Part shown: piece by piece, positions 1-27,391 of the stretch
Numbering within the stretch: position 1 is the stretch's first letter
Layout of the letters: the number at the start of each line of letters is the position of its first letter
Assembly: GCA_036253495.1 (NCBI GenBank)
Contig: GCA_036253495.1_4125.1
Strand: one strand, 5' to 3'
DNA length: 64,000 nt
Origin: a phage
Made by a program: the position numbers and the translations under genes
The notes under the pieces: generated by a model
What the model was told of the DNA's origin: nothing
What the model saw: the letters and a program-made list of their open reading frames with translations, nothing else
The model's database searches: none

Positions 1-3000
1 CACTTGGTAGTGAACCAATCTTTTCCCAACGTTGGGTTACGTCATTAAATTGTGCATATTCTAAATCCCAAATGTCTTTTTCAGTCTTAACCCACACACC
101 ATCAACTAAAATATAGCCATCTGGGTCAAGGTCATTACTGATACCATTAATCAAATCATCATCAGAAGTTTTCTGTTCTATTTGAGAACGGATTTTGGTT
201 CTGTATGGTTTAACTTCTTCGAAGTACTCAACAATTTGATTAATCAAGTTGTCATTTGAGTAGTTTTGTACGAGAGATTGTTCTAAACCTACAATATAGA
301 TATATGAGGTTTTGAATACCCAGTCAACAACACTTTGTTCAGTGTGTACGTACTTAACCATATCAAAAACAATATTACTTTGATATAAGTTGAATGTATT
401 TTTCAACAACGCTAACGCATTACGAACGTTAACCTCATGAGAATTCAAAGAACCATCATCATTGTAAACATTGTACCCAGAATATAACATTGAATTCAAT
501 TCAACTGTACTATTCTCACGTCCAATAGCTTTCCAGTATATATTATTACGAGATGCAGTCTTGATGTATAATGTCCAAACACCATCACTATCAGTTACAC
601 GGATAATATCACCAATTTGGTAATTTTTAGTGTTTGCGTCATCTAAACTAACTTCTTGTGTATATTCAGTGTTGCTATCGTATCCAGTATCGTACCAATC
701 AGCCAGATTCCAGTACTGGGTCATATCCAAAGATGTACCAAGTGATTCTATGAAGTCAGCTTGTTTAATCATCTTGTGTTGACCTTCACCTCTATTTTCT
801 AGAGTGATTGTAACAGTACTACCAACTGTACTTGGACTGTTCATCAATTGAATGTATCCATTTGGATCAATGTGAACAAAATATACTGAACTAGAAGATA
901 ATGGTGATGGCAGAGTTCCGATGGAACTTACAAATACTGCATCATTCTCTTTAAAGCGGTTATCTTCTGGTGCAATTACCAATTCATTGTTAAATGATAG
1001 AACACGGAATGTAATATCATTTGGGTTCATTTTTAATGTTTTCACATTAAACACATCATTCATAACAACACTGTTAGTTGTGATGTTCTGTGAACGGTAA
1101 AAGTTATTTGCACTCTCAACAAACGCACGACGAGCTTCAATGACATTCTGGAACCAAGTTTTATTAGAACCTAAACCAGTTTCAACTTTAGGATAAATTA
1201 TTTCATTTACAACACCAGTTGAAGTAGTTTCTTGACCAATTAGTGAGTTCCATAGTGAATTCCAAATATCTGGGTTAAAGTCATAACTATCACCTTCTTT
1301 ACAGAGTTGATATTGATCATGCTTCAGTACTTCGATATTGTCATTTCTATATGAAATTGTCAAAATGCTTGTATCATCATTAACTTCAAATTGCATATTA
1401 CTTAGAATGAAACTATTTTCATTAATAGGTGCAAACCAAGGAACATTCAATTGTGTTGGATCTTGAATAATACGTGCAATATCAGTACAAGACTTACTAC
1501 GAGTAGTCATTGGTGGAACATAAATGGTATTACGAACCCAGAAATAATAACGAACTACATATGTATCAGTGATTGGATCATATTCCATAGATGAACTGTA
1601 GTTCTCATCCATTGCAATCCCACTTGGGAGATACATAGTATTGTTTTTATTTTTATTGGCTTGTTCTGCACAATATTTTTCCCAGTTGTATGGTTCTACT
1701 GGTGAACTAACCCATTCTAGAACATCAATAACACTGTGTGGTAATAATTTACCCCAATTATAACGCTTATATTCATTAGTTGCTTTTACATCAACGTTAC
1801 CATCCTCATCAAAGATTGGACGGGTATAATCCAGATAGAATGCAGTGCTAGTGTTCCACCACACTTTACCTACCTTTTCAGCACCCCATGCTTGTAATAG
1901 TTCACCGTTACTGCTATACTGTGCTGGGTCCACTGGAGAGATGAAATCAACATCTTGCATTGCAACCCCAGGAATAACACCGTTAATTGGGTCAAACACA
2001 TTCAAATACAATGCAGTAATGTTTGTTCTTTCATCATACGTAGTAGGACGGTCAAACAAAGTGCTTTCAGGTGCACTGTAACTATATTTTTTAGCAATAT
2101 ATTCATCGCGTTCTTGTTGAGTACTAAATCTACTAACATAACGATACAAACGTGGTGCTGATTCTACTGTTGAAAAGTCAATAGTAATGGAAGTGTCAAA
2201 TGGCACTACCATAACTTTTGGATCTAGTCCAGAAGTGTAGTATTGGCATTCATCACGTAGGGCATCAGGCATAAAGTTTGTTTCATCAACAAAATAATAA
2301 TAATCACCATCATTGAGTGGGATATCATCAGACAATAGTACTTTACAATATTGCTCAGCATATGGATCTTCACTTTCAATTGGTGTAATAGAAACCATTG
2401 TAATACCAGTATCTACTAAATCATACACATTCCATTCGTTATTGATATCTTGGAACATCCAAACAGATGTTGGGATTTTACCAGAATTATTCATATAACT
2501 AATGCGGTCTTGATTTGCAGTTTCGTAATTTAATGTGGTATAATCAATTTCATCTAGGGTTACTGGTCCAATATTAGGTAATTGGATATTCTCACTTCTC
2601 CCATTACGCATAGGGAATGAGAATTTACCTTTTGGACGACTAATCCAGCGTGAATCTTCACCAATTTCACCATAATATACAATTTCATTCTCAGATTCAA
2701 CCTTATCGGAATAACGGTCAAACGTAATCATTTGTGGTTGTTGTTTAAACTCATTATTAATTAGTTTAAATTGAAGATTTTTAACACCATCAATGTTACC
2801 ATAAGAACCAACACGGAATGCCCATTCTTGTAATGCTTTATACTCATCAGTATTATATGATTTAGATACACGTAATACTTTTTCTAGTACTTGGTTAGTG
2901 CCTTTATCATGAATAAAACCTTTATAGAAATCAATTCGACCAGGCTCATTAGTGATCATACGTTGTAAGTAATCACGAGACTGATAGCCAATTAAGTGGT

Positions 3001-6000
3001 TTGAAAGTTCATTTAATTGAACATCACTAACTGGGGTTTCATTATCATAATAATGTTGGAAATTAGACACCAAAGTTTCAAATGATGGTAATGTCCCAGC
3101 TTCTAGGATGATAAATCCAGGAGCTTGTAAACGTCCAGACCATGAACCAGTGATATATCCATACAATTTAATCAATTCTTGAACTGCACCATAGGTTGGT
3201 TCATAGATATAATCACCGAAAATAGTCTGATCATCAAAAATAACAGCATGTTCATAAGAACTGATACTTAAACGAATAAGTGCCATGCGTTTATTTGATT
3301 CTTCAGTAGTTCTTACCGTGAATATGTTACCAATACGAGATGTTTCAATCTCAAATTGACGTATACCTTGGTTTGAATCATCTAATAATGACCAAACACC
3401 ACCACTATTTTGTGCAATTGACTGAACTGAACCAAAATCTGTACCAAATTTAGCATTAATTGCTGATGGGGTACAAGAAATGAATTCACCAGTACTCAAT
3501 TGTTGTTGACTCCAGATTAAAAAGTCTTTTGCAATTGTATTCCAGTCCTGTTGGATACCAGATTCATCAACTTCTTCAAAAATCCAACCATGTTGCTTTA
3601 GATACTCACCATAACCACAAATAAATGTGTAAACTTCCTGGAAGGTATTCATCAAAGTTCCGTAAGGAATGGATGCATCATTTTTCCACTCATTATAATG
3701 AACAACATTACGATTATCAACTTTCAAAGATACTTTATGACCGTTTTTAACAGGCAATTTATAATTGAATGTTGCAGAGACTAAATCATAACCATCAATT
3801 TGGTAAGCACTACCAGTCCAAGTAATTTTAATTGCACTCATTTGCTCATTTCTAATATTATTAGAACGAACTAAACCGATAGATTGGTTTTCTTGTGAAA
3901 TTAGACCAGTTGCTTCTGATGTAAATGTTAATTGATCAGCTTTAGTGAATCCACCTAGTTTATGACCCACATTAATATGAGAAGAACGAACAATTTCACC
4001 GTACTTAGTTGTAATATTTTTGTTTTGATACATCAAATAATCACTAACAATCATTTGATAACCAATAACGCGAGTACTATTCTCACCATGTACGATTGTA
4101 TCACTATTAAAGTTCAAACGTAAACGAGTATCACCATATAAAAACTGTGGTTCATTACCAGATACAGTTTTTAATGTATTATTTCGGGTATCCCAGAAAT
4201 AGTTTGTGAACTGTGCAGGTTTAGCTTTGAATAACATCAATAATTCATCATATGCAAACATTGCTGTGTTCATATAAGTGAATTCCATATCACCCATATC
4301 ACCATAAGTCCACGGTTCAGCACGATGATTTAGACTACCATATACAAGACCTAAAACTTCAGGAGCAATGTACTCAATGACGCAAATATCAACACCAGAT
4401 GCTGTCTGCTTGCCTGTTTCAGTGATCTTAAATGGTTGTGTACCAAAACGTTTGTACTTGTCATATTGACCTTTACGTGCACCAAACAAGATAGTACCCG
4501 TTGAGCTATCACCTTTCTCGTTACCAACGTCCCATAACCCACTAGGAACCATGTTACCTTGTTCGTTGATAACTAATGCCTCATATACATAAACAACATC
4601 ACCATCACGTTCGCCAACTTGAACTGCGGTAGGTTCATATTCCTGGTTCCACCAAACTGGACGTTGGGAGAAACCAAACATTTCCCACGGATGGGTTGCT
4701 GGGCGATATGTACCAAATTGGTCAGTGTAGATTGCTCGCCATGATCCACGTGCTTCTATTTGTGTTTGTTGACCATTAACCATATAATGTGTTCCAGTAT
4801 AGTTCCAAGTCATCCAGTTATTTGGATCATAATCATGTGAACTGTTACTGATACCATTGGTTGCGATGAAATTAATATAACCACGTAGTAGTAAGTTCTT
4901 TTTCTCTTCGTCATTATACTCTGTATCTCTGAAATACGGAGTTGGGAAAAGATCAGAAGCATCTAGCTTAGGTTGGTAATCTTCATCTTTGAAAATAACA
5001 TCAATACTATTGAAAATTCTATTTTCTAACTCATATATAACGTCATCCATTTTATCAACACCGTTTATTACACGGTATGCTTTAGTGATTGCACCTGTAT
5101 GACTGATGTTATAACAGCTTTGCTTACTACCAGCATTCAAAAATGTTGCTTTTTCTGGAACGTGTGCTTTCAAAATACCCAAAAACTGTGGAGTTGGTGG
5201 TACAAACGCACGAATGAAGCCAGAAGTACTTGCTACGTTATCATAATAGAATGGGAAAGTATTATCATGACCCATATTAATAATTGTTAGAATTTCATCA
5301 ACAATATTAGAAGCATTATTAGCTAAGAAGTTTGCTGGGTTCTCATTGTACAAACGGATCATTTGTGTATTGAACTTGTTTACGAAACGGAAATATTCGG
5401 ATTGCATAAACAATACAGATTCAAATAGGTCAATATCTTCATTTGCAGAATGTGCCATTAACGGTAGCATTGATGCTTCGTTTTGAATAATCTTAGTACC
5501 AACGGAGTTATCCACTAAACCTTTAGACAAACGATCTTCGTAGTCGTTGAAATCATCAACGGAACCACTGGTGATATTCTTTTGAATGATATCTTTAAAA
5601 TGTAATGTAAAATTACTTTGGTTGATATAAAGAATATTATCGTTGTATGGGTTATTTTGTAAATTGATTGGGATTTCATATGCACCCAACTCTTTATTTG
5701 GTACTTCAGTACTGCTGTATGTTCTAATTTGAATCACTGATTCATCTTTAAGAGCTACATCTTCACCTAAAGTGATGCTTTGAACCTTGTTATTATATAC
5801 ATGACGTGTATAATCGGTTACATCAACTCCATCAACTTGAATTTCAATGATTTCGGTACTCTTACCATCAATAATTTTCTGGGCTAATTCAAATGTGCGA
5901 TTGAAACGTTCACTTTGAATACCTTCACCACTAATTACATGCCAATCCATATAGGTTTGACGTTCTTCTTTGTAATATTGATAGGTACGATCCACTTCAG

Positions 6001-7486
6001 TAACATATGCATACATACCTTCTAATGGATTTTTAAAGTTTTCCATTTCGAATACAGTATTGAATACACGATACATATCAGTGTGTTCTATTTGTGGCGT
6101 TTGTTTAACGAATTGCTTTGAATCTTCCTTAGAACGAACCCAATCGGTCTTAAGGTGTAGTTCATTATCTTTACCAACTACATTATAGTAGTACAATCCA
6201 GAAATTTCAGTTTCAACACCCAAATGATCATATGTATAACGAACACTTTGTAGGAAGTTTTCGTACATATAGTAATTATAATTACCTAGTTCGATATTAT
6301 AACCATATACTTTATCAGTGCCGTAATTATAGTTGATTTTAAAACCAAATAGGGATGAACCATCAAAATTACTTGATGGATAAATTGTAGAATCATTTAA
6401 TTTAAAACCATCACGGTCATATAATTGGAATTGTGGGAATACGTTTACACCAGATTTTGTTTGTGCTCTAATCCAGTTAACACCATTCCAGTACATGGAT
6501 GTATTTTTATATACATTACCATCACGCACCAAAATAACATCACCATTATGTGGCTCACCACTTGGGCGGTCATCAGTTTCTTCATCTGGGTCCAATGCTA
6601 GACCATATGTGCGAGAACCATCTTGCATTTTCTTAATAAAAACTTTATAAATGCGGTTGTTTTCACCAACGTTACCTATACTAGTGAAAAGAATACGCAT
6701 ACCATCTTGTGGAATAATCCCGTCAATACGAATACCATCATTTACGTCTTTTTGGACGATATCTTCTGGTTTAATTGTATCAGAGAAAAGATCCACAACA
6801 CCACGGAAATGTGTCCCGTAGTTAATTAATTCGATATTTTTATTGTACTCGATGATTGGTGCTTGTGCACGAATAAAACGAGTATCTTGTGTCATGTCAG
6901 CAGTTAGTACTGTTCCATCTTCTAGTGTTTGACCAATAGTATACCAAAAGTTCTGTAGGGACCATGTGTTTCCGTTATCAGCACCACGTTCCATAACAAT
7001 AAAGTCAGGAGTTGTGATACCATAACTATTTTTACTATCCCACAAATAGGAACTGTAGTTGGTCATTTTGTTTGGGTTAATTGGTGGTGTCCAAGAATAG
7101 AACTTACCAGAAAATAGACGGCTCTCGTTTGAAGTTAACGTGCCGTAGTGTTCCATGTAGCCAACCAAATCATCATAAAATTGAAGCGAACGAATGCTTG
7201 TGTCATCATTACGAGACACATATGCTGTTGATAATTGATATAGCTGACGTTCAACGGTTGCTTCGTCAAGGAAAATCTTAGCAGATGCAGCAGGAGAACC
7301 CATATCACCAATATATCCATCAACGATTTCATTATCCGCTGGATTGAACCATTGTTGAATTACATCATCACTAACCTTTTGAATGTCTTCTAAGCCTTGC
7401 ATCCATTCAGGTAATCTTTTAATGAAAAGCTTCTGTTGTACTGCTTCTGCCGTTTTAGTTGGTAGAAACTTAAAATTATTAGTCAT
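1..7486 (-). CDS. Very large virion structural protein, 3' end beyond window start (>2,495 codons in window); probable baseplate/tail-fibre module component
   Basis: Minus-strand frame has no stop from 7486 down to position 1 (the ORF track shows only short spurious ORFs here). ATG at 7486-7484 preceded by GGAG. N-terminus reads MTNNFKFLPTKTAEAVQQKLFIKRLPEWMQG. Lies after the gp6-like gene in the baseplate block. Function not recognised. Confidence 0.6.
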   Translation of the reverse strand, partial: MTNNFKFLPTKTAEAVQQKLFIKRLPEWMQGLEDIQKVSDDVIQQWFNPADNEIVDGYIGDMGSPAASAKIFLDEATVERQLYQLSTAYVSRNDDTSIRSLQFYDDLVGYMEHYGTLTSNESRLFSGKFYSWTPPINPNKMTNYSSYLWDSKNSYGITTPDFIVMERGADNGNTWSLQNFWYTIGQTLEDGTVLTADMTQDTRFIRAQAPIIEYNKNIELINYGTHFRGVVDLFSDTIKPEDIVQKDVNDGIRIDGIIPQDGMRILFTSIGNVGENNRIYKVFIKKMQDGSRTYGLALDPDEETDDRPSGEPHNGDVILVRDGNVYKNTSMYWNGVNWIRAQTKSGVNVFPQFQLYDRDGFKLNDSTIYPSSNFDGSSLFGFKINYNYGTDKVYGYNIELGNYNYYMYENFLQSVRYTYDHLGVETEISGLYYYNVVGKDNELHLKTDWVRSKEDSKQFVKQTPQIEHTDMYRVFNTVFEMENFKNPLEGMYAYVTEVDRTYQYYKEERQTYMDWHVISGEGIQSERFNRTFELAQKIIDGKSTEIIEIQVDGVDVTDYTRHVYNNKVQSITLGEDVALKDESVIQIRTYSSTEVPNKELGAYEIPINLQNNPYNDNILYINQSNFTLHFKDIIQKNITSGSVDDFNDYEDRLSKGLVDNSVGTKIIQNEASMLPLMAHSANEDIDLFESVLFMQSEYFRFVNKFNTQMIRLYNENPANFLANNASNIVDEILTIINMGHDNTFPFYYDNVASTSGFIRAFVPPTPQFLGILKAHVPEKATFLNAGSKQSCYNISHTGAITKAYRVINGVDKMDDVIYELENRIFNSIDVIFKDEDYQPKLDASDLFPTPYFRDTEYNDEEKKNLLLRGYINFIATNGISNSSHDYDPNNWMTWNYTGTHYMVNGQQTQIEARGSWRAIYTDQFGTYRPATHPWEMFGFSQRPVWWNQEYEPTAVQVGERDGDVVYVYEALVINEQGNMVPSGLWDVGNEKGDSSTGTILFGARKGQYDKYKRFGTQPFKITETGKQTASGVDICVIEYIAPEVLGLVYGSLNHRAEPWTYGDMGDMEFTYMNTAMFAYDELLMLFKAKPAQFTNYFWDTRNNTLKTVSGNEPQFLYGDTRLRLNFNSDTIVHGENSTRVIGYQMIVSDYLMYQNKNITTKYGEIVRSSHINVGHKLGGFTKADQLTFTSEATGLISQENQSIGLVRSNNIRNEQMSAIKITWTGSAYQIDGYDLVSATFNYKLPVKNGHKVSLKVDNRNVVHYNEWKNDASIPYGTLMNTFQEVYTFICGYGEYLKQHGWIFEEVDESGIQQDWNTIAKDFLIWSQQQLSTGEFISCTPSAINAKFGTDFGSVQSIAQNSGGVWSLLDDSNQGIRQFEIETSRIGNIFTVRTTEESNKRMALIRLSISSYEHAVIFDDQTIFGDYIYEPTYGAVQELIKLYGYITGSWSGRLQAPGFIILEAGTLPSFETLVSNFQHYYDNETPVSDVQLNELSNHLIGYQSRDYLQRMITNEPGRIDFYKGFIHDKGTNQVLEKVLRVSKSYNTDEYKALQEWAFRVGSYGNIDGVKNLQFKLINNEFKQQPQMITFDRYSDKVESENEIVYYGEIGEDSRWISRPKGKFSFPMRNGRSENIQLPNIGPVTLDEIDYTTLNYETANQDRISYMNNSGKIPTSVWMFQDINNEWNVYDLVDTGITMVSITPIESEDPYAEQYCKVLLSDDIPLNDGDYYYFVDETNFMPDALRDECQYYTSGLDPKVMVVPFDTSITIDFSTVESAPRLYRYVSRFSTQQERDEYIAKKYSYSAPESTLFDRPTTYDERTNITALYLNVFDPINGVIPGVAMQDVDFISPVDPAQYSSNGELLQAWGAEKVGKVWWNTSTAFYLDYTRPIFDEDGNVDVKATNEYKRYNWGKLLPHSVIDVLEWVSSPVEPYNWEKYCAEQANKNKNNTMYLPSGIAMDENYSSSMEYDPITDTYVVRYYFWVRNTIYVPPMTTRSKSCTDIARIIQDPTQLNVPWFAPINENSFILSNMQFEVNDDTSILTISYRNDNIEVLKHDQYQLCKEGDSYDFNPDIWNSLWNSLIGQETTSTGVVNEIIYPKVETGLGSNKTWFQNVIEARRAFVESANNFYRSQNITTNSVVMNDVFNVKTLKMNPNDITFRVLSFNNELVIAPEDNRFKENDAVFVSSIGTLPSPLSSSSVYFVHIDPNGYIQLMNSPSTVGSTVTITLENRGEGQHKMIKQADFIESLGTSLDMTQYWNLADWYDTGYDSNTEYTQEVSLDDANTKNYQIGDIIRVTDSDGVWTLYIKTASRNNIYWKAIGRENSTVELNSMLYSGYNVYNDDGSLNSHEVNVRNALALLKNTFNLYQSNIVFDMVKYVHTEQSVVDWVFKTSYIYIVGLEQSLVQNYSNDNLINQIVEYFEEVKPYRTKIRSQIEQKTSDDDLINGISNDLDPDGYILVDGVWVKTEKDIWDLEYAQFNDVTQRWEKIGSLPS

Positions 7487-7532
7487 GTATAGGACTCCAT
7501 AAATTCGTTCATTCATTTGATTTATTTATGCT

Positions 7533-7558
7533 ATAAAAAAGGCGACCCGAAGGCCGCC
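7533..7558 (-). terminator. Intrinsic terminator downstream of gp6-like gene
   Basis: GC-rich hairpin ggcggcc-UUCG-ggtcgcc (minus-strand sense, one mismatch) followed by U-run (plus-strand A-run 7535-7540). Confidence 0.55.
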
Positions 7559-7567
7559 ACGATTTTA

Positions 7568-10500
7568 TTAAAAACCAATATTAATATTACTTTTAGCTAG
7601 AGAGTTAACGATTTGTACGTTATCAACGGTAGCAGTACTAATGAATATTTGGTCAGGTCTAGAAGGTATCTCAAACAATGAACCAAACTTAGAATTAGGG
7701 TTTTGAGCTACAATTACAACAGTACTAATGTGTCTACCAAGTTGGGTATGAAGGTACGTACACAAATCAGTATAATAGAAACTTTCACCAAAATCCCAGT
7801 TCTCAACTGCAAAGTACTGGTTAGTTAATGAAACAATATTTTGACGAATTTCATCATCACTCATTGTACTATTAGGTAATTTCACTACTTTGAAATCAGC
7901 TTTATAATCCGGTGCTGCACTATTACCAAATAAAGGCAAATATTCAGCACTGTGCCATATCAAACTATCACTAATTACAGTTTTCTTCTCAACATCCTTG
8001 AAGATATCTTGTAATTCAACCGATGTTGGTGGTTTAGGCATATCACCTTTAGCACCATTCTTCAACCAAATATCAACTTCTGTCTTATATGAGTTTGTTA
8101 AAACATACATATCAATTAAGTTGGTTCTGCTTGGGTCGATTCGATTATCATCTGGTGCATAATGCTTCCAGTGGAAGTTAATAGACGTTCTAGCATTAGT
8201 TTTTATAGTAAGTTCAGATGTAATATCCTTATAACCATAATAATTAAGCTTTTTATTAGCGTCAACACTTGTACCCATGTTTTTAATACAACGATAGAAA
8301 GCAGTTTCTGGAGTAGCCGCACTTGGGTCTGTAACTTCAGTCATGTTCTGAATTAGAACACCCAAACGGTCATTGTTATTACCAACTGTTTGTTCGATGA
8401 AGTAATATTGCCCTTCGTATTGGAATGCAATAATAAAACCAGTACCTTTACTATATAGTTCACTTAGTGTAGTTGAGCGAATTTCATTATTACGAATGAA
8501 TTCTTGTCTCTTGTACGCATTAGTTTCCGCTAATGCCTGATCCATTGTGTAATTCCATGTTGAATCCATGATAGTGAATGATGAATTTGGTAATGTCAAT
8601 GAAGAAATAGTAAAATCTTCATTTTGTTGAAATACCAATATACCACCATATTTTCTAGAATCTTCACCTGTCCAATCAGGAACAATAGATTGGAATTGGT
8701 TAGGATTTAATGGAATACCATTACTATCCATACTTTCTGATGTAATTACAACTCTTGAACCATCCAAATAACCATTTTCTTGTTTTATTGTATCCAGAAT
8801 CTGGAAATCAATGTTATTGGTTAGACCCACGTTACTAGTACTGGTAGAGTTTGATGAAAGAATCTCAATTTTATCACTTTGCACTGAACCAGAACTAATA
8901 TCAGTGATTTTCTTAGAGCTTACAAAGTAAAAACGAACTTTTTCTCCACCAACAAATACATACTCAACACCATTGGAATCAAATTCCCATGTTTCAGCAG
9001 TGTATTGGATGTTAACCATCACCTGTACTAACGAACCATTGTATGTTATAGTATCACTAGTGGTTGTCATTTCCAAAGGAACCCATGTAGTGGATACAAT
9101 ATCATAAATTAGAATAAAGTTAGTTTTCTTATCTAACATTGCAGCAATATTTTGTACTTCAACTGTGTTGAAACGAGTTCTATATGGGCTAATGTACTCC
9201 TGAATCTGCATAGAGGAAGAAATAGGCGTACTTAGAACATAAAAACCGTTAGGTAACACGCTAACAATACTAGCCCATACGATATTATTTGAACTACTAC
9301 CGAATTTAATTAATGTACCAACTTTATAATCACCATAAATTGTACCAGTTGCCCCAATAATACGACCATATGTATTAGTTGCATAGCTTGAACTATATGA
9401 TGGAACCCAGTTTTGTTGTAATTCAACACGTACTGTATTCTGCGGATATGCTTGATACTTCTGAATAACAGCATTTTCACCAATTAATGGTTGTATATCA
9501 TCGATAACAATACTAGAATTAGATTTAGTACTTGGTAAATTAACAGATTTATTGTATTTGGTGACATTTTTGTACATTGCACCATCATCACTAAACACAT
9601 CAGTGTTTTGATACTTACCAGTTGGGTCATTTATGTCAATAAATCGTGATTGTCCACTGTAAATTCGGTTAATCGCTTTAGATTTCAGTACTGCATTACC
9701 TTGACTCAACGGAGCAATGTTATAATCTTCACCATTCACAAAACGGTTTTGTGTATAATACATTTGTGGTGCACGAGCTTTAATTTGTTCAAGGGTTTCT
9801 GCACTTTGTGCACGGTCTGATTCAAATTGTAAACTAAATTTAATATCTAATGTACTATTCTCATAGTTAGATTGTGATTTAGTTCTGTAAATGTACTTAA
9901 CACTTTTGTTTTGAATGTCAGCAGTTTTGATGTTGTATGTTTCGCCATTACTAACACGATACCAAACGCGATATGTACCACGTGGAACAACACCACTACG
10001 TGAATCAGGGAACTTAATACTGATTTGGTCACGATCACGAGTAGTTACCGCATAAATTGTTTTAAGTTGGCGTGTTACAGTGTTATATGCGATACTTTCC
10101 ATCGATGGAACCTTAGTCCATTTAGTACGAACTATACCATCTTCAGTGATTTCCTGTACCCATACGTCAGTTTCGTTAATATTGTCTACGTTTATATCCT
10201 GAATACGGTTTTCTTGTCTTACATCGTATTGGAAATCTTGATATTGTAATGTTCCTTGAATAAAATAAACAAAGAATCCAGTATTAGGTGAACTAAAACC
10301 ATTACCATCATTCTGATACACAATATATTTCTGTTCTTGTGGCTCAGGGTGTCTTTCATCAACACCAATAACGTTAATATCTGGGTTTACGACTTCAAAT
10401 GTCATCGATTCACCATTTACTGTTGCGGTGAATGGTAAATTAGGTGCAGACATAGGTAAAGTGTTCATTCTATACAAATGACGAGACACACCATTAATAT

Positions 10501-11032
10501 CTAAACGTTTTACTGGATTACCAAACTGGTTAGTACTGACAAATGCACTATTCATCACCAGAATAAAGTTTTCATACCAGTTAGAGTCCATTGGGTCATT
10601 CCAACGGATAATTTTATCTTTAAGAGATTCGTTATAGCTGTTGCGAACGTCTTGGTTAGTTTTAATTTCAGTTAGTTTTGCTGTTGCTCGCCCTGGATAT
10701 GCACGACGAGGTGAATATGAGATCATTTTAGCTAATTTAAGTACAGATGCACGACGACTAGCAGTATCTAGGAAGTTTTCACGCGTGTTTAAATCCATAC
10801 GAAATGCTAAGTTTTGTCCAAGCATCGCAATGGTATCTAAAATGAAGATAAACTGGTCATTCTCAATCCAGTCATTGAATGAATCAGGATATGTTTGACG
10901 CAAATAATCAATCATACTTTGACGTATAGTATCGAAGTCATAAGCCGTCAGATTTATTTTATAGAAACTTTCATATACCTGGGTCCAGTCTTCCCCCGCG
11001 TATAAATTAGATTGTCTTTTTTGTTGTGACAT
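7568..11032 (-). CDS. Baseplate wedge protein, gp6-like (1154 aa)
   Basis: ORF with ATG and AAGGA RBS. N-terminal region (…LDYDF…, …TASRRASVLKLAKMISYSP…) resembles T4 gp6/baseplate J family from memory. Sits next to gp25-like gene as in canonical contractile-tail baseplate order. Confidence 0.55.
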   Translation of the reverse strand: MSQQKRQSNLYAGEDWTQVYESFYKINLTAYDFDTIRQSMIDYLRQTYPDSFNDWIENDQFIFILDTIAMLGQNLAFRMDLNTRENFLDTASRRASVLKLAKMISYSPRRAYPGRATAKLTEIKTNQDVRNSYNESLKDKIIRWNDPMDSNWYENFILVMNSAFVSTNQFGNPVKRLDINGVSRHLYRMNTLPMSAPNLPFTATVNGESMTFEVVNPDINVIGVDERHPEPQEQKYIVYQNDGNGFSSPNTGFFVYFIQGTLQYQDFQYDVRQENRIQDINVDNINETDVWVQEITEDGIVRTKWTKVPSMESIAYNTVTRQLKTIYAVTTRDRDQISIKFPDSRSGVVPRGTYRVWYRVSNGETYNIKTADIQNKSVKYIYRTKSQSNYENSTLDIKFSLQFESDRAQSAETLEQIKARAPQMYYTQNRFVNGEDYNIAPLSQGNAVLKSKAINRIYSGQSRFIDINDPTGKYQNTDVFSDDGAMYKNVTKYNKSVNLPSTKSNSSIVIDDIQPLIGENAVIQKYQAYPQNTVRVELQQNWVPSYSSSYATNTYGRIIGATGTIYGDYKVGTLIKFGSSSNNIVWASIVSVLPNGFYVLSTPISSSMQIQEYISPYRTRFNTVEVQNIAAMLDKKTNFILIYDIVSTTWVPLEMTTTSDTITYNGSLVQVMVNIQYTAETWEFDSNGVEYVFVGGEKVRFYFVSSKKITDISSGSVQSDKIEILSSNSTSTSNVGLTNNIDFQILDTIKQENGYLDGSRVVITSESMDSNGIPLNPNQFQSIVPDWTGEDSRKYGGILVFQQNEDFTISSLTLPNSSFTIMDSTWNYTMDQALAETNAYKRQEFIRNNEIRSTTLSELYSKGTGFIIAFQYEGQYYFIEQTVGNNNDRLGVLIQNMTEVTDPSAATPETAFYRCIKNMGTSVDANKKLNYYGYKDITSELTIKTNARTSINFHWKHYAPDDNRIDPSRTNLIDMYVLTNSYKTEVDIWLKNGAKGDMPKPPTSVELQDIFKDVEKKTVISDSLIWHSAEYLPLFGNSAAPDYKADFKVVKLPNSTMSDDEIRQNIVSLTNQYFAVENWDFGESFYYTDLCTYLHTQLGRHISTVVIVAQNPNSKFGSLFEIPSRPDQIFISTATVDNVQIVNSLAKSNINIGF

Positions 11033-11131: not shown

Positions 11132-11527
11132 TTATAATTTAGATGTTGTGAATGTCGCCATTCTATTATTACTTCTGGCATCAAACACTATAGTTAGTTG
11201 TTCTAATTTATCAAGCATTACATACTCTAAAATTATATCCAAACGATAACCATATTCAACATTACTAACTGTTAGATTTTTTAAATTCAAACGTGGGTCT
11301 AATGAAATAATTCTACGAGCGTCAGCTTCTAAAAGATTTTTTGTATTATAACCATCAAGTTCAAAAATCAAATCCCAAGCAATGAAACCATAATCAGCAT
11401 CAAATGCTCTTTCACCTTTCTTTGTATTGAAGTGGTTCATCAAATCCTGTCTCACCAACTCAGCATCATACAGAGTTTGTGTTTTACCCACAACAGGAGT
11501 AGAGAAACCTTTAAAAACTATTGCCAT
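11132..11527 (-). CDS. Baseplate wedge protein, gp25-like (GPW/gp25 family)
   Basis: 131 aa. Motif KGERAFDADYGFIAWDLIFE matches T4 gp25 KGSRPFDPEFGCDLSDQLFE. GAGGA RBS. Confidence 0.7.
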   Translation of the reverse strand: MAIVFKGFSTPVVGKTQTLYDAELVRQDLMNHFNTKKGERAFDADYGFIAWDLIFELDGYNTKNLLEADARRIISLDPRLNLKNLTVSNVEYGYRLDIILEYVMLDKLEQLTIVFDARSNNRMATFTTSKL

Positions 11528-11540: not shown

Positions 11541-12029
11541 TTATACGGATTCAACAATCCTTGCCATTTTTTCAGCACGAGAAGTTGTTTGACGATACCA
11601 AGCGGAATCACGCATTTCTTTGCCAGCGGTTTTATAATCACCACGACCCAATGCTGCCATTGCTTTCTTAAAGTTCAATACACGAGATTTACCCATTTGG
11701 AATACCATCATCCAAAGTACACGTTGTACTTGAATAGGTGCAGTCATTCCGAATTGATCGTAAATCTCTTTTGCTTCTCTGTATGCATTTAGGGAATCTT
11801 TTTGAAGTAATGCTTCAGCTTCAGCTTCCGTTAGCCCTGCACTGAAATTTTCACCTTTTAGTACTAAGTGACCATATCCAATGGTATCTAGTCCTAGGCT
11901 ATCTTTATAAACTCTGAATTTACCATTCTTGAAATAACCTAATTTAGTTTGGAAAGCAATAGTACCTTCAAACTCTTTAATTTCTTTCAAATACTGTGCA
12001 TCATCAGGTTTAATTTCCCATTTACTCAT
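11541..12029 (-). CDS. T4-type lysozyme (GH24 endolysin-like)
   Basis: 162 aa. KDSLGLDTIGYGH, MVFQMG and SAWYRQTTSRAEKMARIV align with T4 lysozyme KDTEGYYTIGIGH, MVFQMG, SRWYNQTPNRAKRVITTF. Confidence 0.85.
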   Translation of the reverse strand: MSKWEIKPDDAQYLKEIKEFEGTIAFQTKLGYFKNGKFRVYKDSLGLDTIGYGHLVLKGENFSAGLTEAEAEALLQKDSLNAYREAKEIYDQFGMTAPIQVQRVLWMMVFQMGKSRVLNFKKAMAALGRGDYKTAGKEMRDSAWYRQTTSRAEKMARIVESV

Positions 12030-12044
12030 ATACTTCTCCTATAA

Positions 12045-12067
12045 TATTTATTGGATAAAATATTTAT
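12045..12067 (-). promoter_or_regulatory. Putative T4-type late promoter(s) for lysozyme gene
   Basis: Two ATAAATA cores on minus strand 15-40 nt upstream of the lysozyme ATG. Confidence 0.3.
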
Positions 12068-14727
12068 TGACATGCCTCAATTCTACGTGCCATTAACTCT
12101 GCACGACGAGTTGTTTGACGATACCAAGCGGAACTACGTATATGAGCAGCAGCACCACGATAATCACCTTTAGCTAAACATCCAAGCATACCCTTGAATT
12201 TTTGAACTTTGTATTTGCCCATTTGGAATACCATTTGACATAGTACTTGTTGAGCAATAACAGGTGTTTTTAAATCCCAGGCCGCATATATTGATTTGGC
12301 ATCATTAATTGCTTGCGTACTGTCTCGTACTAATATTGCTTCAGCTTCTGCTTCAGTTATACCACCAGAAAAATCTTCACCTCCGACAATAAGGTGTCCA
12401 TATCCAATTGTAGGGAATCCACGGCTATCAATATAACGCCAGAATTTTCCATTTCTGAAATATCCAAGTGCTGTTTGATATTGGATAGTACCTTCGTGTT
12501 CTTTAAGTTCGGATATAAATTGGGAATCACCCGGAGCAACTTTCCATCCAACGGCAGTTTTATCAACATTACCTACATTATAATTTTGTTCAACTTTTGG
12601 AGCGGTTCCTGCATTTCGAGGCTTACGTTCTCTACGACGAGGAACATGACGAGAACCACGTTGTGAATAACCAGTTCCAATAGTTCGTATGCGAGTTGAT
12701 ATTACCAATTCATCACTATCAGCAGATGGTCTGACCACATCTTTAGGGTTATTTTGTGTTGATGGTTGACCACCAATTAATGTTTTATTCGCCGCAGCAG
12801 AACCCTGACCAGTTACAGTTGTGTAGAATAATCCAGGATCAACTGAACCACTAAAACCATAGATATTAGATGAGCGAACTCTTATTTCAAATCGTAATAT
12901 ACCATTAGCAGTTCCTATTACTTGTCCTTTTTCAACAACATCTTTATTGAATAGGTCAGAAGTTAAACCATAGAAAACAGATTTATAACCAGATTTATGC
13001 TCAACAATAAGAGCATCACCACTGATACCAACAATCCCACCATCTGGTGCAACCACACTTCCACGGGCTTGAATTTCCCATCCACTACTATCACGCTTGG
13101 TTCCATTCTCGGTCGTTACACCCTTACCCCAATAACCATTCTGGCGAATAGTACCGCTACATGGCATAAGCATATGCAAACCTTCAAACGTCTGCGAATA
13201 ACCAGTCATTCCTGGTTCAGCCGCCATTAAATCTTGTGTTTGAACTTCACTTGTCTCTGGGGCATAATTTACAAATTGAATTGCTTCTGTTTCTTGTTGC
13301 TCTGCAAGTGTAGGTTGAACATCATTTGCTGGTTGTGGCTCAACTGGAGATGTTGTACTACCTTGACCACCACCACTTATACCAGGATCAACCCTATCAC
13401 CGTGGTTTTCTGCATCTTTCCAGTTAGCAATCATATGAATGTGGTCATTAAGACCCACTGATGGAGTTTTGAAGTCAGGAGCCATGAATGCAGCACTACC
13501 ACTATTACCTGCACTATCAACCGTTAGGTTTTGACCACCACCACTAATGTTAACGGATGAACCACCAATAACGTTTGCTGAGGATGAACCTTTAATAGAT
13601 GCAGTTGACCCAGCCGTAATATCAGTACTGCTACCACTTTGAAGACGTAATGAAGCACCAGTAACCAAACGAAGATCAGCACCAGAATTAATTACAACCT
13701 GACCATTGACCTTAGCATCCAAATTACCGACCAATTCCAGTTTGGTATTTCCACCAACACGAGTATTGAAGTCTTGCCCACTTTCAATATTATAAGAACG
13801 ACCTGCAACCATGTTAATATCTTGACCTGCACGAATGTTTATGTTTTTATCACAGTGCATTTCAATATCACCATCGCCAGTGAATTTAATACGAGCCGTA
13901 CCATCACGGTTAATTAATAAAACATTACCAGTGGCTTCAGAAATAAGAAGTTGTGCACCACTACGTGTTTTAATAACAATACCTTCATTCTTTCTGGAAC
14001 CAACACGAGTGTCATTAACTGGGTTGTTAAATTGTGTGTCTTGGTATCCATCAGGGTCTTGATCCCATGTTGGCTTGGTCAATTCTTCTTCTGTATATCC
14101 ATCATCAAGAATAAAACTATTACCACGAGGTGTACTCATACCATATACAGTACTGGTTGTTTGACGAGTACTGCTGCGGTTTGCAACACCTGCTTCATCA
14201 TCGTATAATAAGTTTTGTTTTTTCAATCCTTCAACAGCAGGAACGTTAATATATTTGTCTTGCATGTCAGTTGTGATTGTGTTACGATCATAATCAGTTA
14301 CTGGTAATGGCATATCAGTACCATTGTAATTGGTATCCGCAGTTGCCATTCCAGGAACCATTGTATTCATACGTTGGTCATAAACACATCCAATCCAGTA
14401 AGCTTGGAATGTACGTGCTTGTGCAAAAATAACAACAACAGTACATCCCACATCTGGTGGAACGGCCCAAAAACCATAACCCTTTGGATATTGTCCATAA
14501 CTATCTGCACTCGGTATTCCTGGAGTTTTGCCAGCAAACGGAGCCATATAAGAAGCTTCAATCCATGAATCTTTAGAGTTTTTATCACTTTGTGAACCTT
14601 GTATCCATACTTTTAGCTTACCAGATTTCGTAGGATCACGGTTATCCATAACGGTTGCTAATTGTGGATAAGATGGGTCAAAACGACCCAACTGTTCCTT
14701 TGCATACTTTTTACTTGTATCTGCCAT
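12064..14727 (-). CDS. Baseplate central spike, gp5-like, with C-terminal GH24 lysozyme domain and a degenerate M23-like domain
   Basis: 887 aa. N-terminal OB/spike-like region, Gly/Ser-rich beta-helix-like repeats (residues ~290-400), M23/LytM-like segment (…IVEHKSGYKSVFYGLT…GQVIGTANGILRFEIR) lacking the HxH motif, and C-terminal ~160 aa paralogous to the adjacent lysozyme (TIGYGH, MVFQMG, SAWYRQTTRRAELMARRI). Confidence 0.75.
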   Translation of the reverse strand: MADTSKKYAKEQLGRFDPSYPQLATVMDNRDPTKSGKLKVWIQGSQSDKNSKDSWIEASYMAPFAGKTPGIPSADSYGQYPKGYGFWAVPPDVGCTVVVIFAQARTFQAYWIGCVYDQRMNTMVPGMATADTNYNGTDMPLPVTDYDRNTITTDMQDKYINVPAVEGLKKQNLLYDDEAGVANRSSTRQTTSTVYGMSTPRGNSFILDDGYTEEELTKPTWDQDPDGYQDTQFNNPVNDTRVGSRKNEGIVIKTRSGAQLLISEATGNVLLINRDGTARIKFTGDGDIEMHCDKNINIRAGQDINMVAGRSYNIESGQDFNTRVGGNTKLELVGNLDAKVNGQVVINSGADLRLVTGASLRLQSGSSTDITAGSTASIKGSSSANVIGGSSVNISGGGQNLTVDSAGNSGSAAFMAPDFKTPSVGLNDHIHMIANWKDAENHGDRVDPGISGGGQGSTTSPVEPQPANDVQPTLAEQQETEAIQFVNYAPETSEVQTQDLMAAEPGMTGYSQTFEGLHMLMPCSGTIRQNGYWGKGVTTENGTKRDSSGWEIQARGSVVAPDGGIVGISGDALIVEHKSGYKSVFYGLTSDLFNKDVVEKGQVIGTANGILRFEIRVRSSNIYGFSGSVDPGLFYTTVTGQGSAAANKTLIGGQPSTQNNPKDVVRPSADSDELVISTRIRTIGTGYSQRGSRHVPRRRERKPRNAGTAPKVEQNYNVGNVDKTAVGWKVAPGDSQFISELKEHEGTIQYQTALGYFRNGKFWRYIDSRGFPTIGYGHLIVGGEDFSGGITEAEAEAILVRDSTQAINDAKSIYAAWDLKTPVIAQQVLCQMVFQMGKYKVQKFKGMLGCLAKGDYRGAAAHIRSSAWYRQTTRRAELMARRIEACQ

Positions 14728-16877
14728 TACTCACCACCTGGGTTTATTATACTATCTTTACGTTTAAGTGCACGAGCGACAATAGCACCTTGAATTTGTT
14801 GCGTGAAAGTACCGTTTGTACCAAAATCATGAATTATTTTGTTTACGCGATAGATTGTTTCGTTGAATGTGGTTGGCGTGGTTATGTCCAAAATACCAGT
14901 ATTATCATTAATAGAAACAACTGGTTGTAATTTCAATAACAAATATGCTTCAGTTGAAATATAATTTGCATATTTGAAATCCTCTGGATTTATATATAAT
15001 GCTTCACCATTTACCAACATATCCAAATATTGAAGATATGCATGATCACCCCACCCCAACCAATATGGGTCACCAATTACACGCATATCCAACTTACACA
15101 TAAATGGACGGTTATAATAGTTGTCGCGTATTTTACGTCTGTCCATTTCATACGTACTACTATTATCGTTATCAGATGCCGATAAAGTTGTATGGTTGTT
15201 TGTAGCTTCAGTTGGTATAGTGAATATTTCACCCCTACGATCACCAATTCCATCAGCACCCATGTCATTTTCTTCATATACACTACGATAATCTTCAATG
15301 TATTCAGGAAGGACATGAACTTTGTAATTCATATAAGCATCTTGTTCTTCTTGATTACCCACACCCATCGCATTTTTTAATTGCTCATCTACTTCATTTA
15401 GTAATGCAGTTTGAGCTTGTGTTATAATTTCCCCTTTACTTCGTGCTTTTCTTATATCACTAGTCTTATTCCACGCATCTAATGGGTTACTATATTGAAC
15501 CCCTTGTATGGTTAATTCCTGTGATGCATGTGTACCACTTCTGTTACCTTGGTCTTGTATTGGACCTGGGTTACGTGTTGTAGCTACATAAAATTGCTGA
15601 TCGAAATTCATATCCAAATCTAATATTTCATTATTCAATCCACTGAATTGATAATTGTATATTTTCATTCTTAACTTTTCTTCATTATCTCTAGGGTCAA
15701 GATAACGTTCAGAGTTTTCTAGGAACGTTTCGAAGTTAAAGTTTTCTGGTTGTAAATCCGATTCATGAACAACATCACCAATTCGAAAACGAACAATATT
15801 AAAAATAACTTTATATACTGATGTATTACGTAAATTATCAAAACCAACATATTGTTTAAGTGGGATTATATTAACAAATTGGCGAACGCTAGTACTATCA
15901 CCTTCACGAACAGTACATGCATCAATAACATCATCAATTATTCTTGATATTGGTGTACTTGGATTCCATGAAAAGTTTTTAGAACCCTGTGAACCATTTT
16001 TTGTTGAAGTTACTTCAGTCATTTGTTTAGAATCATAGTTTATGAACATATCAGCAAGTTCAGGTGCAACTTTAAATTCAAAAAATTTACCTTCTGCCAG
16101 TTCTGGAAATTTCATACACAAATAACCATACTGTTGTTCTGACATTTCATTTAACTTATCTTCCAAATCATAACAAAATGCTCCAAATTGTGCAGCAGTA
16201 CATGAGAATGTTTCTTTTAATGTCCATTCTACGTTATCAACCAATGCAGCACGATTGTGTACTAAGTTAATGGTATATAACATTGTACTACCAGTTGCAC
16301 TGGCACTTGCTTTAACGTTGTTAATCTTCACTGACCAACGTTTTGTAGTGTTTGGTATGACTTGAGGAACACCATCTTCATTATAACCAATGAACTTTAG
16401 TTCAAGGATTAATGGTAAATCCATAAATTTATGATAACGAAGTTTATTACTTAATGATATCAACTCATCGTAAAAACTCATACTATTGTTTTCTGACATA
16501 CTTATTGAAGCAGTATTAAATGTATAGTTTGTTGTCATACCAGGAGTTGAGGGACCAGCTTGCGTCATCTGAACATTTGTGATATTATACTTACCAGTAA
16601 CGCCACTTTCAGTGATTACATAACGTTGGACTTCAGCATCTGGATTTTCCCAGAACATCTTAAAGTCATCTTTATCTAAGGCAAACAAGGTAAAGTGCCA
16701 CGTTGCTGAATTGTATTTTAATAAAACATTTTCATTGTCAATAATAAAATCAGAAATCTTTTTATCGTCATAAATTCTATCAGTATGTGTGCTTTGAATT
16801 GGTTTTGATTGTACGTTACTTACTTTAGCACCATATTTGTTACTCTGACTAGGGTCTAGTCCAATTTTAGTATCCAT
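14727..16877 (-). CDS. Baseplate hub-like structural protein (gp27/gpD position), hypothetical
   Basis: 716-aa ORF with GGAG RBS directly upstream of the spike gene. Assignment by position only. Confidence 0.35.
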   Translation of the reverse strand: MDTKIGLDPSQSNKYGAKVSNVQSKPIQSTHTDRIYDDKKISDFIIDNENVLLKYNSATWHFTLFALDKDDFKMFWENPDAEVQRYVITESGVTGKYNITNVQMTQAGPSTPGMTTNYTFNTASISMSENNSMSFYDELISLSNKLRYHKFMDLPLILELKFIGYNEDGVPQVIPNTTKRWSVKINNVKASASATGSTMLYTINLVHNRAALVDNVEWTLKETFSCTAAQFGAFCYDLEDKLNEMSEQQYGYLCMKFPELAEGKFFEFKVAPELADMFINYDSKQMTEVTSTKNGSQGSKNFSWNPSTPISRIIDDVIDACTVREGDSTSVRQFVNIIPLKQYVGFDNLRNTSVYKVIFNIVRFRIGDVVHESDLQPENFNFETFLENSERYLDPRDNEEKLRMKIYNYQFSGLNNEILDLDMNFDQQFYVATTRNPGPIQDQGNRSGTHASQELTIQGVQYSNPLDAWNKTSDIRKARSKGEIITQAQTALLNEVDEQLKNAMGVGNQEEQDAYMNYKVHVLPEYIEDYRSVYEENDMGADGIGDRRGEIFTIPTEATNNHTTLSASDNDNSSTYEMDRRKIRDNYYNRPFMCKLDMRVIGDPYWLGWGDHAYLQYLDMLVNGEALYINPEDFKYANYISTEAYLLLKLQPVVSINDNTGILDITTPTTFNETIYRVNKIIHDFGTNGTFTQQIQGAIVARALKRKDSIINPGGE

Positions 16878-16888: not shown

Positions 16889-17203
16889 TTAACCTACACT
16901 GCGTGTACCATTAAGGTATGATTGAATGCGTTGACTTGACGGTACTCTAATAGTTATTCCAGTTTGAAAGTTGTAAATCGGGTCTTCACCCAATAAATCA
17001 GGATTAAGTAAGGCGAATACATAATATAAACGCTCATTACCATACATTTCATACGCTAAACGCCACGGTTGGTGGTTGTACTTTGCAGGTATTTCATAAA
17101 AATCATCAGTATCTGCTGGAATTATGTCACGAGGTAAGGTATAATCCAAATACCACGTCTGTTTAACTTTTGCATAAGGTGAATATTGACTATAGTTTGA
17201 CAT
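16889..17203 (-). CDS. LysM-like baseplate/tail protein (P2 gpX / T4 gp53-type)
   Basis: 104 aa. Segment YEIPAKYNHQPWRLAYEMYGNERLYYVFALLNPDL…FQTGITIRVP resembles a LysM fold. Start overlaps upstream stop (TAATG), GGAGGA RBS. Confidence 0.4.
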   Translation of the reverse strand: MSNYSQYSPYAKVKQTWYLDYTLPRDIIPADTDDFYEIPAKYNHQPWRLAYEMYGNERLYYVFALLNPDLLGEDPIYNFQTGITIRVPSSQRIQSYLNGTRSVG

Positions 17204-17934
17204 TAAATGAATCCTCCATTGCGAAGCATATCACCACGCTTAAATGCGTTAAGATTAAACTTCTTAGTCATAAATTCTGATGTTGGTTGCTCTTCTAATT
17301 GAATAGTTACCGATATCTTTTGTGGAACCCACACTTCATCTTGTGGATTCATGTACCCAGAACTTCTTAATTGTTCAAAAAATTGTCTACTATCCATATC
17401 GGACAAATTAAAAGTACTGTTACTACTATCCAATGGTACTTGAATATAAGAAACATCATTTGGATAGGTAAAATTATATGATTTCATTACTACAGGAATA
17501 TCATTATATGTATAACGACCATACCCACTTAGTAATAGGATTGGTGGTGGTGCACCAGGAACAGCTAAATCGGGGTTATTAGCTGATGCAGCTTTTCTAC
17601 CAAAATCCATCAATGATACAGAGCGAATAAAATGCATACATGCTAAAGTGTATAGAGCTTCAGCAGCAGTATTTGCATAAAATTCACCTTGTATCGTGAA
17701 AATAGTATTACTTGTATTTTTATAGTTGTTATAGTTACTATTTGAATGCACAGGAGACTGTGTTTCATACTGAATACTTCTTTGTTCAGTGATTGTTGGC
17801 GTTACGGTCCATACCAAACCATTGGTTGGACGCAAAAACGATAGTAGTGTTGGGTTGGCTCCGTCACCAAAATCCCCATACACATAGTTAGCACCAGCGG
17901 CTTTAGGTCTTAGTCGGATTCGACGATCAATCAT
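17203..17934 (-). CDS. Hypothetical baseplate-associated protein
   Basis: Track ORF 17203..17961 begins at an upstream ATG with no RBS; the internal ATG at 17934 (MIDRRIRLRPK…) follows a GGAG RBS. Function unknown. Confidence 0.55.
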   Translation of the reverse strand: MIDRRIRLRPKAAGANYVYGDFGDGANPTLLSFLRPTNGLVWTVTPTITEQRSIQYETQSPVHSNSNYNNYKNTSNTIFTIQGEFYANTAAEALYTLACMHFIRSVSLMDFGRKAASANNPDLAVPGAPPPILLLSGYGRYTYNDIPVVMKSYNFTYPNDVSYIQVPLDSSNSTFNLSDMDSRQFFEQLRSSGYMNPQDEVWVPQKISVTIQLEEQPTSEFMTKKFNLNAFKRGDMLRNGGFI

Positions 17935-17967
17935 TTGTGTTACTCCATTACAAGGAAACATTTGAAG

Positions 17968-17975
17968 TATTTATA
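17968..17975 (-). promoter_or_regulatory. T4-type late promoter TATAAATA (minus strand)
   Basis: Exact TATAAATA on minus strand about 35 nt upstream of the baseplate operon start. Confidence 0.45.
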
Positions 17976-17978
17976 GGT

Positions 17979-18006
17979 GGGACAAAGCTGATTTTAGTGC
18001 TATAAT
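17979..18006 (+). promoter_or_regulatory. sigma70-like early promoter, GGGACA-N16-TGcTATAAT
   Basis: GGGACA 17979-17984, 16-nt spacer, extended -10 TGcTATAAT ending 18006. Member of a recurrent motif family (see findings). Confidence 0.5.
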
Positions 18007-18058
18007 ATTAGCGATGGCACACGGATTGTGCCTATTGGTCATTACATGGAGAGTTACA

Positions 18059-22585: not shown

Positions 22586-22681
22586 AATGTGCCTTAGATC
22601 TAAGTTAGTTTATGAAATATTTATGAAATACATTCCTAAGAAATTTTTAAGTACTTTTTTATAAAAAAGATTAGATATTTT

Positions 22682-22709
22682 GAGACACTTTTAAATTGCG
22701 TGCTATAAT
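22682..22709 (+). promoter_or_regulatory. sigma70-like promoter GAGACA-N16-TGcTATAAT driving an ORF-free transcript
   Basis: -35 GAGACA 22682-22687, 16-nt spacer, TGcTATAAT 22701-22709. Confidence 0.55.
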
Positions 22710-22715
22710 GTTTCA

Positions 22716-23192: not shown

Positions 23193-23283
23193 TTATCTTC
23201 ATTCCCCTGCGGGGGGATGAAATATCCTCAACAAATCCCGTCAAGTATTAAATCATTTAAAGTTCTTTATAATTATATTAAAA

Positions 23284-23365
23284 TGAATATGAGTTAACGT
23301 AGTTAACGAATATTCTTCAGCTAACGAATGAAATGAGTTAGATGAGTTCAATATAAATCAAATGA
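23284..23365. repeat. Cluster of short degenerate direct repeats (ATGAGTT / AGTTAACG / TAACGAAT / ATGAAT)
   Basis: ATGAGTT x3, AGTTAACG x2 in tandem, TAACGAAT x2, in an AT-rich gap between convergent terminators. Confidence 0.4.
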
Positions 23366-23424
23366 ATTCCTTCAAGAATAAATCTTTTAAGATCATAATT
23401 TCTTTCATCTACTTTGTAAGTAAA

Positions 23425-23467: not shown

Positions 23468-23480
23468 CTTCTTATGAGTA

Positions 23481-27376: not shown

Positions 27377-27391
27377 AGGATTAATAATATA

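Follow-up and report, generated by a model that had tools for sequence, protein, structure and literature searches.

A family of giant structural proteins encoded beside the gp6-like baseplate wedge gene of jumbo phages

The DNA analyzed here is a 64,000-nucleotide stretch of a phage contig (GCA_036253495.1_4125.1; NCBI GenBank assembly GCA_036253495.1), referred to below as the window, whose first 7,486 positions are filled on the minus strand by one uninterrupted reading frame. We report that this frame holds the N-terminal 2,495 codons of a giant virion structural protein (ortholog of A4_580 of Escherichia phage A4; family phrog_10938), encoded by the largest gene that RaK2-like jumbo phages have. 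The gene was known before this work: it carries an annotation in GenBank, has a PHROG family, has served as a genome-comparison anchor, and has been detected in virions by mass spectrometry, so finding it is ordinary for this phage group. New here are that the conserved core of the protein is the part inside the window, that the family is huge and almost uniformly giant, that it is linked near-invariantly to gp25-like and gp6-like genes, that it has three module-swapping sites, and that no solved structure, T4 gp7 included, is detectably related to it. We consider it fairly probable that the protein is a peripheral baseplate scaffold in the gp7 position, present six times per virion (one per wedge) on a gp6-like dimer and carrying outward variable modules.

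Translation of positions 7486 to 1 gave 2,495 codons with zero stops, beginning with an ATG at 7486, where ~189 stops are expected at the local base composition (~35% GC; probability of no stop, ~6e-86). An alternative in-frame ATG at 7516, chosen by some gene callers (e.g., P0001; 3,335 amino acids [aa]), would add 10 residues. Over its first 12 kb, the window matches Escherichia phage A4 (ON286972.1; Asteriusvirus; host, E. coli LF82; 355,528 bp) with 99.7% identity and PBECO4, 121Q, and their relatives with ~78%. The A4 counterpart is A4_580 (“structural protein”; 180370 to 190347; 9,978 nucleotides; 3,325 aa; roughly 380 kDa), from whose known full length the window holds the first 75% of the protein; the frame leaves the window at position 1, 830 codons lie outside, and the two copies differ at 8 of 2,495 residues. 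An earlier note on this DNA, written from the sequence alone, had described a single frame of more than 2,495 codons running off the edge, and the A4 record both agrees with this and supplies the full gene.

The frame is not split by stops or frameshifts into ordinary-sized genes. Fifty-nine cluster representatives of 3,310 to 3,469 aa align with it over the full length or nearly so (44 to 100% identity), which rules out a sequencing or assembly artifact as the source of the long frame. The full-length core is present in 73 cultured phage genomes, and orthologs occur in all RaK2-like phages (3,320 to 3,346 aa). Residues 1 to 2495 matched positions 1 to 2496 of the 3,324-position phrog_10938 profile (E = 0; 4,326 bits), which was the sole PHROGs match for each of five segments of the protein. 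Orthologs annotated “virion structural protein” include PBECO4 gp538 (YP_009150852.1; 3,333 aa) and RaK2 ORF070w (YP_007007225.1; 3,326 aa); these, together with phAPEC6 gp245 and CBB_236, are colinear with the giant over the full length (58 to 78% identity) and have the same neighbors, and neither they nor A4_580 differ from it in any essential way.

Virion proteomics, proposed in the earlier note as a check, has in fact been published for two orthologs. In phAPEC6, a phage conspecific with 121Q, gp245 (“hypothetical protein”; 381.88 kDa) was identified by 17 unique peptides in virion mass spectrometry and lies directly after gp244 (“baseplate wedge”; 131 kDa) (PMC7247149). In CBB, CBB_236 (“structural protein”) was identified by 21 peptides and adjoins CBB_237, the gp6 homolog (PMC5259590). 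Sequence coverage was 7 to 8% for these two proteins (PMC7247149, PMC5259590), and it is through the published mass spectra of these orthologs that the giant is counted as a virion protein. The CBB authors anchored their genome comparisons on “the largest gene” of each RaK2-like phage and gave T4 homologs for gp5, gp6, gp25, and gp53, with no gp7 (PMC5259590). In PA5oct, gp128, among the two largest proteins of that phage, adjoins the wedge protein gp129 (PMC7318152); PA5oct-like phages match the window protein with 28% identity across 75% of its length.

The earlier note regarded proteins of this size as unusual, a view that does not hold within the family, where 3,000 to 6,300 aa is the norm. 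A word-indexed search returned 174 relatives, every one between 3,128 and 5,233 aa long. A profile of aa 1 to 460, compared exhaustively with 1.84 billion cluster representatives, gave 1,584 matches at E ≤ 1e-3 (823 at E ≤ 1e-30), so that at least 1,584 clusters at 50% identity share the conserved core (aa 1 to 2450). These matches nearly always begin at residue 1 to 25; most of the relatives are 3,000 to 6,281 aa long, and the shorter ones may be contig fragments. IMG/VR contributed at least 524 loci, the longest on contigs of 136 to 453 kb. Among cultured phages there were 93 matching records, and those listed are jumbo myophages of 284 to 490 kb, with the one exception of an 86-kb partial Klebsiella record; they comprise RaK2-like and PA5oct-like phages, Salicola SCTP-2, Agrobacterium Atu_ph07, Ralstonia RsoM2USA, Xanthomonas XacN1, and Stenotrophomonas RAS14, and their annotations all read either hypothetical protein or virion structural protein. 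A full-length homolog (P0025; 59% identity) was deposited with a Salmonella enterica serovar Braenderup assembly and labeled a bacterial “hypothetical protein”; its 371-kb contig probably represents the genome of a jumbo phage inside a bacterial assembly, owing to either a carrier state or contamination.

As the earlier note had stated, the giant follows a gp6-like gene. This neighbor (7568 to 11032, minus strand) encodes a baseplate wedge protein of 1,154 aa that matches phrog_10646 and phrog_219 (“baseplate wedge subunit”) and resembles T4 gp6 weakly at the N terminus; Pfam DUF8360 is found in its relatives. Before it lies the gene for a gp25-like sheath initiator or wedge protein (11132 to 11527, minus strand; PF04965). 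In A4, likewise, A4_581 (“baseplate wedge”) precedes A4_580, which is followed by a strong terminator and then a convergent ClpA-like gene. Among 80 loci from IMG/VR, a gp6-like homolog stood directly upstream of the giant in 75, with both on one strand in 74, and gp25 was also present in 73. The string spike, gp25, gp6-like, giant recurs in two distant metagenomic relatives, where the gp6-like protein carries DUF8360 and the start of the giant gene overlaps the gp6-like stop; in the distant metagenomic relative L005, a Collar-domain fiber gene lies downstream of the giant. The gene order in P2 (W-J-I-H), Mu, and A-1(L) is spike, gp25, gp6, gp7-like, fiber. The giant thus takes the position of P2 gpI, immediately 3′ of the gp6/gpJ-like gene and, in L005, before a fiber gene.

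Coverage by BLASTP alignments of 49 distant relatives delimited a conserved core at aa ~50 to 2450, with dips at 450 to 550, 1700 to 1800, and 2150 to 2250, and detected no conservation beyond aa 2450; the end of the core nearly coincides with the window edge. Four parts of the window protein, all on the minus strand, stand out. The N-terminal segment (aa 1 to 100; 7187 to 7486) is conserved and partly helical. The most conserved block (aa 1401 to 1550; 2837 to 3286) is helical and contains the motif DFYKGxIxEKGT. The least conserved stretch of the core (aa ~1700 to 1820; 2027 to 2389) is the main insertion hot spot, and the last core blocks (aa 1821 to 2450; 137 to 2026) are rich in W, G, and P. 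In composition, the protein is beta-rich and poor in Ala and Leu.

Distant relatives carry their extra sequence at three sites, namely aa ~150 to 160 (90 to 270 aa), aa ~1700 to 1820 (100 to 1,500 aa), and after aa 2450, where a lineage-specific C-terminal module begins. In A4, this module accounts for the C-terminal 873 aa, is specific to RaK2-like phages (72 records, once per genome), and is less conserved than the core (38 to 57% identity). FG-GAP repeats and CBM_5_12 modules lie inside insertions of distant family members only, and precomputed Pfam matches placed TIG domains in some members. The receptor-binding modules that the earlier note thought plausible therefore exist at variable sites of distant members and were not seen beyond them. 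The other internal features it had suggested did not appear: self-BLASTP found no internal sequence repeats, and Pfam and NCBIfam scans, run on the protein both whole and in five segments, revealed no domain of any kind, enzymatic domains included. In two relatives, P0081 (aa ~1952 to 2490 and ~3400) and P0111 (aa ~2720), the FG-GAP and CBM_5_12 matches fall exactly at the two variable core sites. P0111 has almost no C-terminal module and instead a 1,500-aa insertion at the aa 1700 to 1820 site, and from this exchange accessory modules appear to move between sites.

Structure was predicted with AlphaFold2 for two parts of the protein. For aa 1 to 1100 (26-sequence alignment), the model was a compact, mixed alpha/beta, multidomain body (mean predicted local distance difference test [pLDDT] score, 86; predicted template modeling [pTM] score, 0.75), with aa 1 to 19 and 48 to 86 below pLDDT 50 and the first 100 residues at ~49. 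For aa 1296 to 2495 (pLDDT, 73; pTM, 0.48), prediction was confident at ~1545 to 2395, which includes aa 1821 to 2395 of the last core blocks, and poor at ~1411 to 1542 and 2400 to 2495; the cut of this model at residue 1296 may contribute to the poor prediction of aa 1401 to 1550. By column conservation, the poorly predicted stretches (aa 1 to 100, 1401 to 1550, and 2401 to 2450) equal or exceed the well-folded parts, and being conserved yet poorly predicted as monomers, they fit segments that fold only against partner chains. By analogy with residues 1 to 107 of A-1(L) gp32, aa 1 to 100 would be a candidate docking segment for the gp6-like dimer, and the models suggest that aa 1401 to 1550 may form an inter-subunit interface. 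Foldseek comparison with the PDB returned nothing better than E = 0.08, and PDB sequence searches with the full protein, the full-length family profile, and the conserved helical segment returned no match. Our literature search found no published baseplate structure for RaK2-like phages or Asteriusvirus; the phiKp24 paper resolved the capsid and tail and left the baseplate proteins unresolved, and the Goslar and phiKZ baseplates come from a lineage unrelated to these phages.

In T4, the gene that directly follows gene 6 encodes gp7, a large wedge protein of several domains that binds a gp6 dimer and anchors peripheral proteins and fibers. The earlier note had suggested a fused gp7/fiber-like component; the position fits, as the giant occupies the gp7 slot of the P2, Mu, and A-1(L) orders, and homology to T4 gp7 or P2 gpI was not found by Pfam models, profile-profile comparison, or fold search. 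The Pfam models Gp7_helical (PF21428), Gp7_5th (PF21427), and Gp7_6th (PF21456) gave no match to the giant even at E ≤ 1 to 10, whereas T4 gp7, the positive control, matched all three strongly. Profile-profile comparison (hhalign) with a 16-sequence gp7 profile yielded probabilities of 0.2% (full length), 1.7% (aa 1 to 460), and 0.3% (aa 1390 to 1640), and comparisons with single-sequence T4 gp7 and with the N terminus of the phage’s own gp6-like protein were all below 2%. Tail_P2_I (PF09684) did not match the giant, while the control P2 gpI scored 6e-56; hhalign probabilities against P2 gpI were 0.2% (N-terminal profile) and 1.1% (aa 1390 to 1640 segment). No fold similarity to the solved T4 gp7 chain was found. 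With Pfam, hhalign, and fold comparisons negative while the Pfam controls matched, the giant does not belong to the gp7 or gpI families by any of these measures. Reading DFYKGxIxEKGT (aa ~1520 to 1530) as a “KGT” signature of wedge core proteins found no support in any test and is speculation only.

The likeness to gp7 that we favor is one of function, drawn from gene order, virion presence, the lack of another recognized gp7 among these phages, and the conserved segments that fail to fold as monomers. Like T4 gp7, the giant is encoded directly after the gp6-like gene; unlike it, the giant is three times longer and shows no detectable similarity in sequence or fold. The giant shares the order spike, gp25-like, gp6-like, X, fiber with P2 gpI, Mu gp48, A-1(L) gp32, and TssG of the type VI secretion system, whose N-terminal helical segment folds only in the heterotrimer, much as the conserved N terminus of the giant is poorly predicted alone; those proteins differ from it in being only ~110 to 190 aa long. 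In A-1(L), residues 1 to 107 of the gp7-like subunit gp32 join a helical bundle with two gp6-like N termini, whereas the helical domain of T4 gp7 lies at residues 643 to 689 in our Pfam control scan, so the docking segment of the giant could be either its N terminus or its central helical block.

Under the scaffold reading, one copy of the giant would sit on each wedge, six per virion, docked on the gp6-like dimer through the conserved segments that do not fold alone (aa 1 to 100 and/or aa 1400 to 1550), and would fill the role of gp7, gpI, or TssG in other contractile machines. The giant and two gp6-like chains would form a heterotrimer, for which gene adjacency and these segments offer indirect support. 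The remainder of the chain, small beta domains and helical domains in series within the 2,450-residue core, would build the outer baseplate as a single polypeptide and do work that T4 splits among several proteins (gp7 to gp11), of which gp8 to gp11 are added to the T4 baseplate as separate chains. The outward-facing parts would be the variable insertions together with the C-terminal 870 aa, which could either dock branched fibers and depolymerases or touch host surface glycans. More tentatively, and with rather less confidence than we place in the scaffold itself, the protein may be a new type of baseplate builder, in which one chain of 3,000 to 6,000 residues with folds absent from the PDB replaces the whole T4 periphery (gp7 to gp11) and serves as a chassis with three module sites.

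The spacer between the gp6-like stop and the giant ATG (7487 to 7567, minus strand; 81 nucleotides) bears on a different reading. It contains a GC-rich, terminator-like hairpin, GGCGGCCTTCGGGTCGCC, followed by T6 (7558 to 7541), then ATAAATA (7529 to 7523), which resembles the T4 late promoter TATAAATA, and a GGAG Shine-Dalgarno motif (7498 to 7495) 5′ of the ATG at 7486; a late promoter motif for this phage group is described in the CBB paper (PMC5259590). Given the hairpin and the promoter-like motif, the giant may form its own late transcription unit in A4. Distant relatives differ from A4 at this junction, with overlapping genes in place of the 81-nucleotide spacer. Separate transcription would suit a baseplate accessory, such as an outer decoration or fiber-docking platform, that is not the gp7 equivalent, with a separate, unrecognized small protein completing the gp6-like heterotrimer. 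The failure of every gp7-, gpI-, or TssG-type homology test points the same way, and uncharacterized virion proteins are encoded nearby (716 aa, 14727 to 16877; 252 aa, 17203 to 17961; A4_572 to A4_578). Yet gp7-type proteins are notoriously divergent, so undetected homology is weak evidence; in 75 of 80 loci the giant comes right after the gp6-like gene, whose stop its start overlaps in distant relatives, and no other candidate is conserved in that position. We regard the accessory as credible but unlikely.

A giant fiber acting as primary adhesin, whether as six short baseplate fibers or as the “hairy” whiskers on phAPEC6 and CBB tails and heads, is in our judgment improbable. The earlier note had suggested a fiber-like nature, whereas the models show compact, mixed alpha/beta, multidomain folds and not a coiled coil or beta-helix: the N-terminal 1,100 aa form a compact body, neither the Pfam scans nor the two models contained coiled-coil, collagen-like, or beta-helix features, and nothing in the giant resembled a repetitive or elongated trimeric fiber or tailspike architecture, repeats being absent. 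The core is far too conserved for an adhesin, the family occurs in RaK2, K64-1, and PA5oct-like phages, for which the papers we consulted report no whiskers, and these genomes encode dedicated tail-fiber proteins at other loci, both annotated and detected.

An internal or ejected virion protein (like the N4 virion RNA polymerase or T7 gp16) or a tape measure, with coincidental adjacency to baseplate genes, would suit a very large virion protein of probably low copy number (7 to 8% mass spectrometry coverage) but is scarcely credible, since no polymerase, lytic, or other enzymatic domain was found, the beta-rich, Ala- and Leu-poor, multidomain chain is unlike helical tape measures, the linkage to gp25 and gp6-like genes is near-invariant, and 3,325 aa at the usual tape-measure scaling of ~0.15 nm per residue would give a tail of ~500 nm against the 94 to 128 nm observed. 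The tape-measure, ejected-polymerase, and fiber readings were set aside for the reasons stated here and above.

The remaining genes of the block are, in minus-strand order, a gp53-like small wedge protein (16889 to 17203; 104 aa; phrog_7145; ortholog of CBB_242), the 716-aa structural protein between it and the spike gene (14727 to 16877), a gp5-like central spike (12064 to 14727; 887 aa) with a Phage_base_V OB domain, a weak M23 match, and a C-terminal lysozyme domain, and a free-standing lysozyme (11541 to 12029; 162 aa; PHROG profile match), followed by the gp25, gp6-like, and giant genes. Beyond the gp53-like gene lies that of the uncharacterized 252-aa virion protein (17203 to 17961). The free-standing lysozyme matches positions 727 to 885 (E = 2.6e-63) of the same PHROG profile that the C-terminal lysozyme domain of the spike matches, which points to a local duplication of the lysozyme domain within 11541 to 14727; with its weak M23 peptidase match, the spike may carry two hydrolytic activities. 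The spike gene also coincides with a local rise in GC content at 12001 to 14000 (0.398 versus ~0.35), where the GC skew (−0.17) is more negative than anywhere else in the window.

At ~17960 to 18015, both the coding direction and the GC-skew sign change, and the leftward structural (baseplate) operon diverges from a rightward block that encodes a gp55-like late sigma factor, a phosphoesterase, and an SbcC-like ATPase. Positions 22586 to 23493 (~900 bp) have no annotated gene and no open reading frame of >55 aa, contain small AT-rich palindromes, and are exactly where the A4 locus tags wrap (A4_591 to A4_1); the stretch could have a role in regulation or replication, or mark the point where the genome originally began. 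Scanning the window, this region included, for tRNA genes and Rfam families gave no match. In the metagenomic relative L006 (ERZ25073835), a 686-aa gene with Hint and Hom_end_hint matches (26547 to 28607) lies four genes downstream of the giant homolog and suggests that an intein or homing endonuclease has inserted into a structural gene of this uncultured jumbo phage.

In RaK2-, PBECO4-, and PA5oct-like jumbo phages, the giant probably makes up the bulk of the outer baseplate; several of these phages are under development as therapy against E. coli, Klebsiella, and Pseudomonas. Its structure, a good target for cryo-electron microscopy, would reveal how branched depolymerase and fiber arrays are attached and how contraction is triggered, and the three module-swapping sites would be natural engineering points for host range. 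If the single-chain chassis proves true, a very large and mostly uncultured clade of jumbo phages would plug its adhesion and fiber-docking modules into three fixed sites of one protein.
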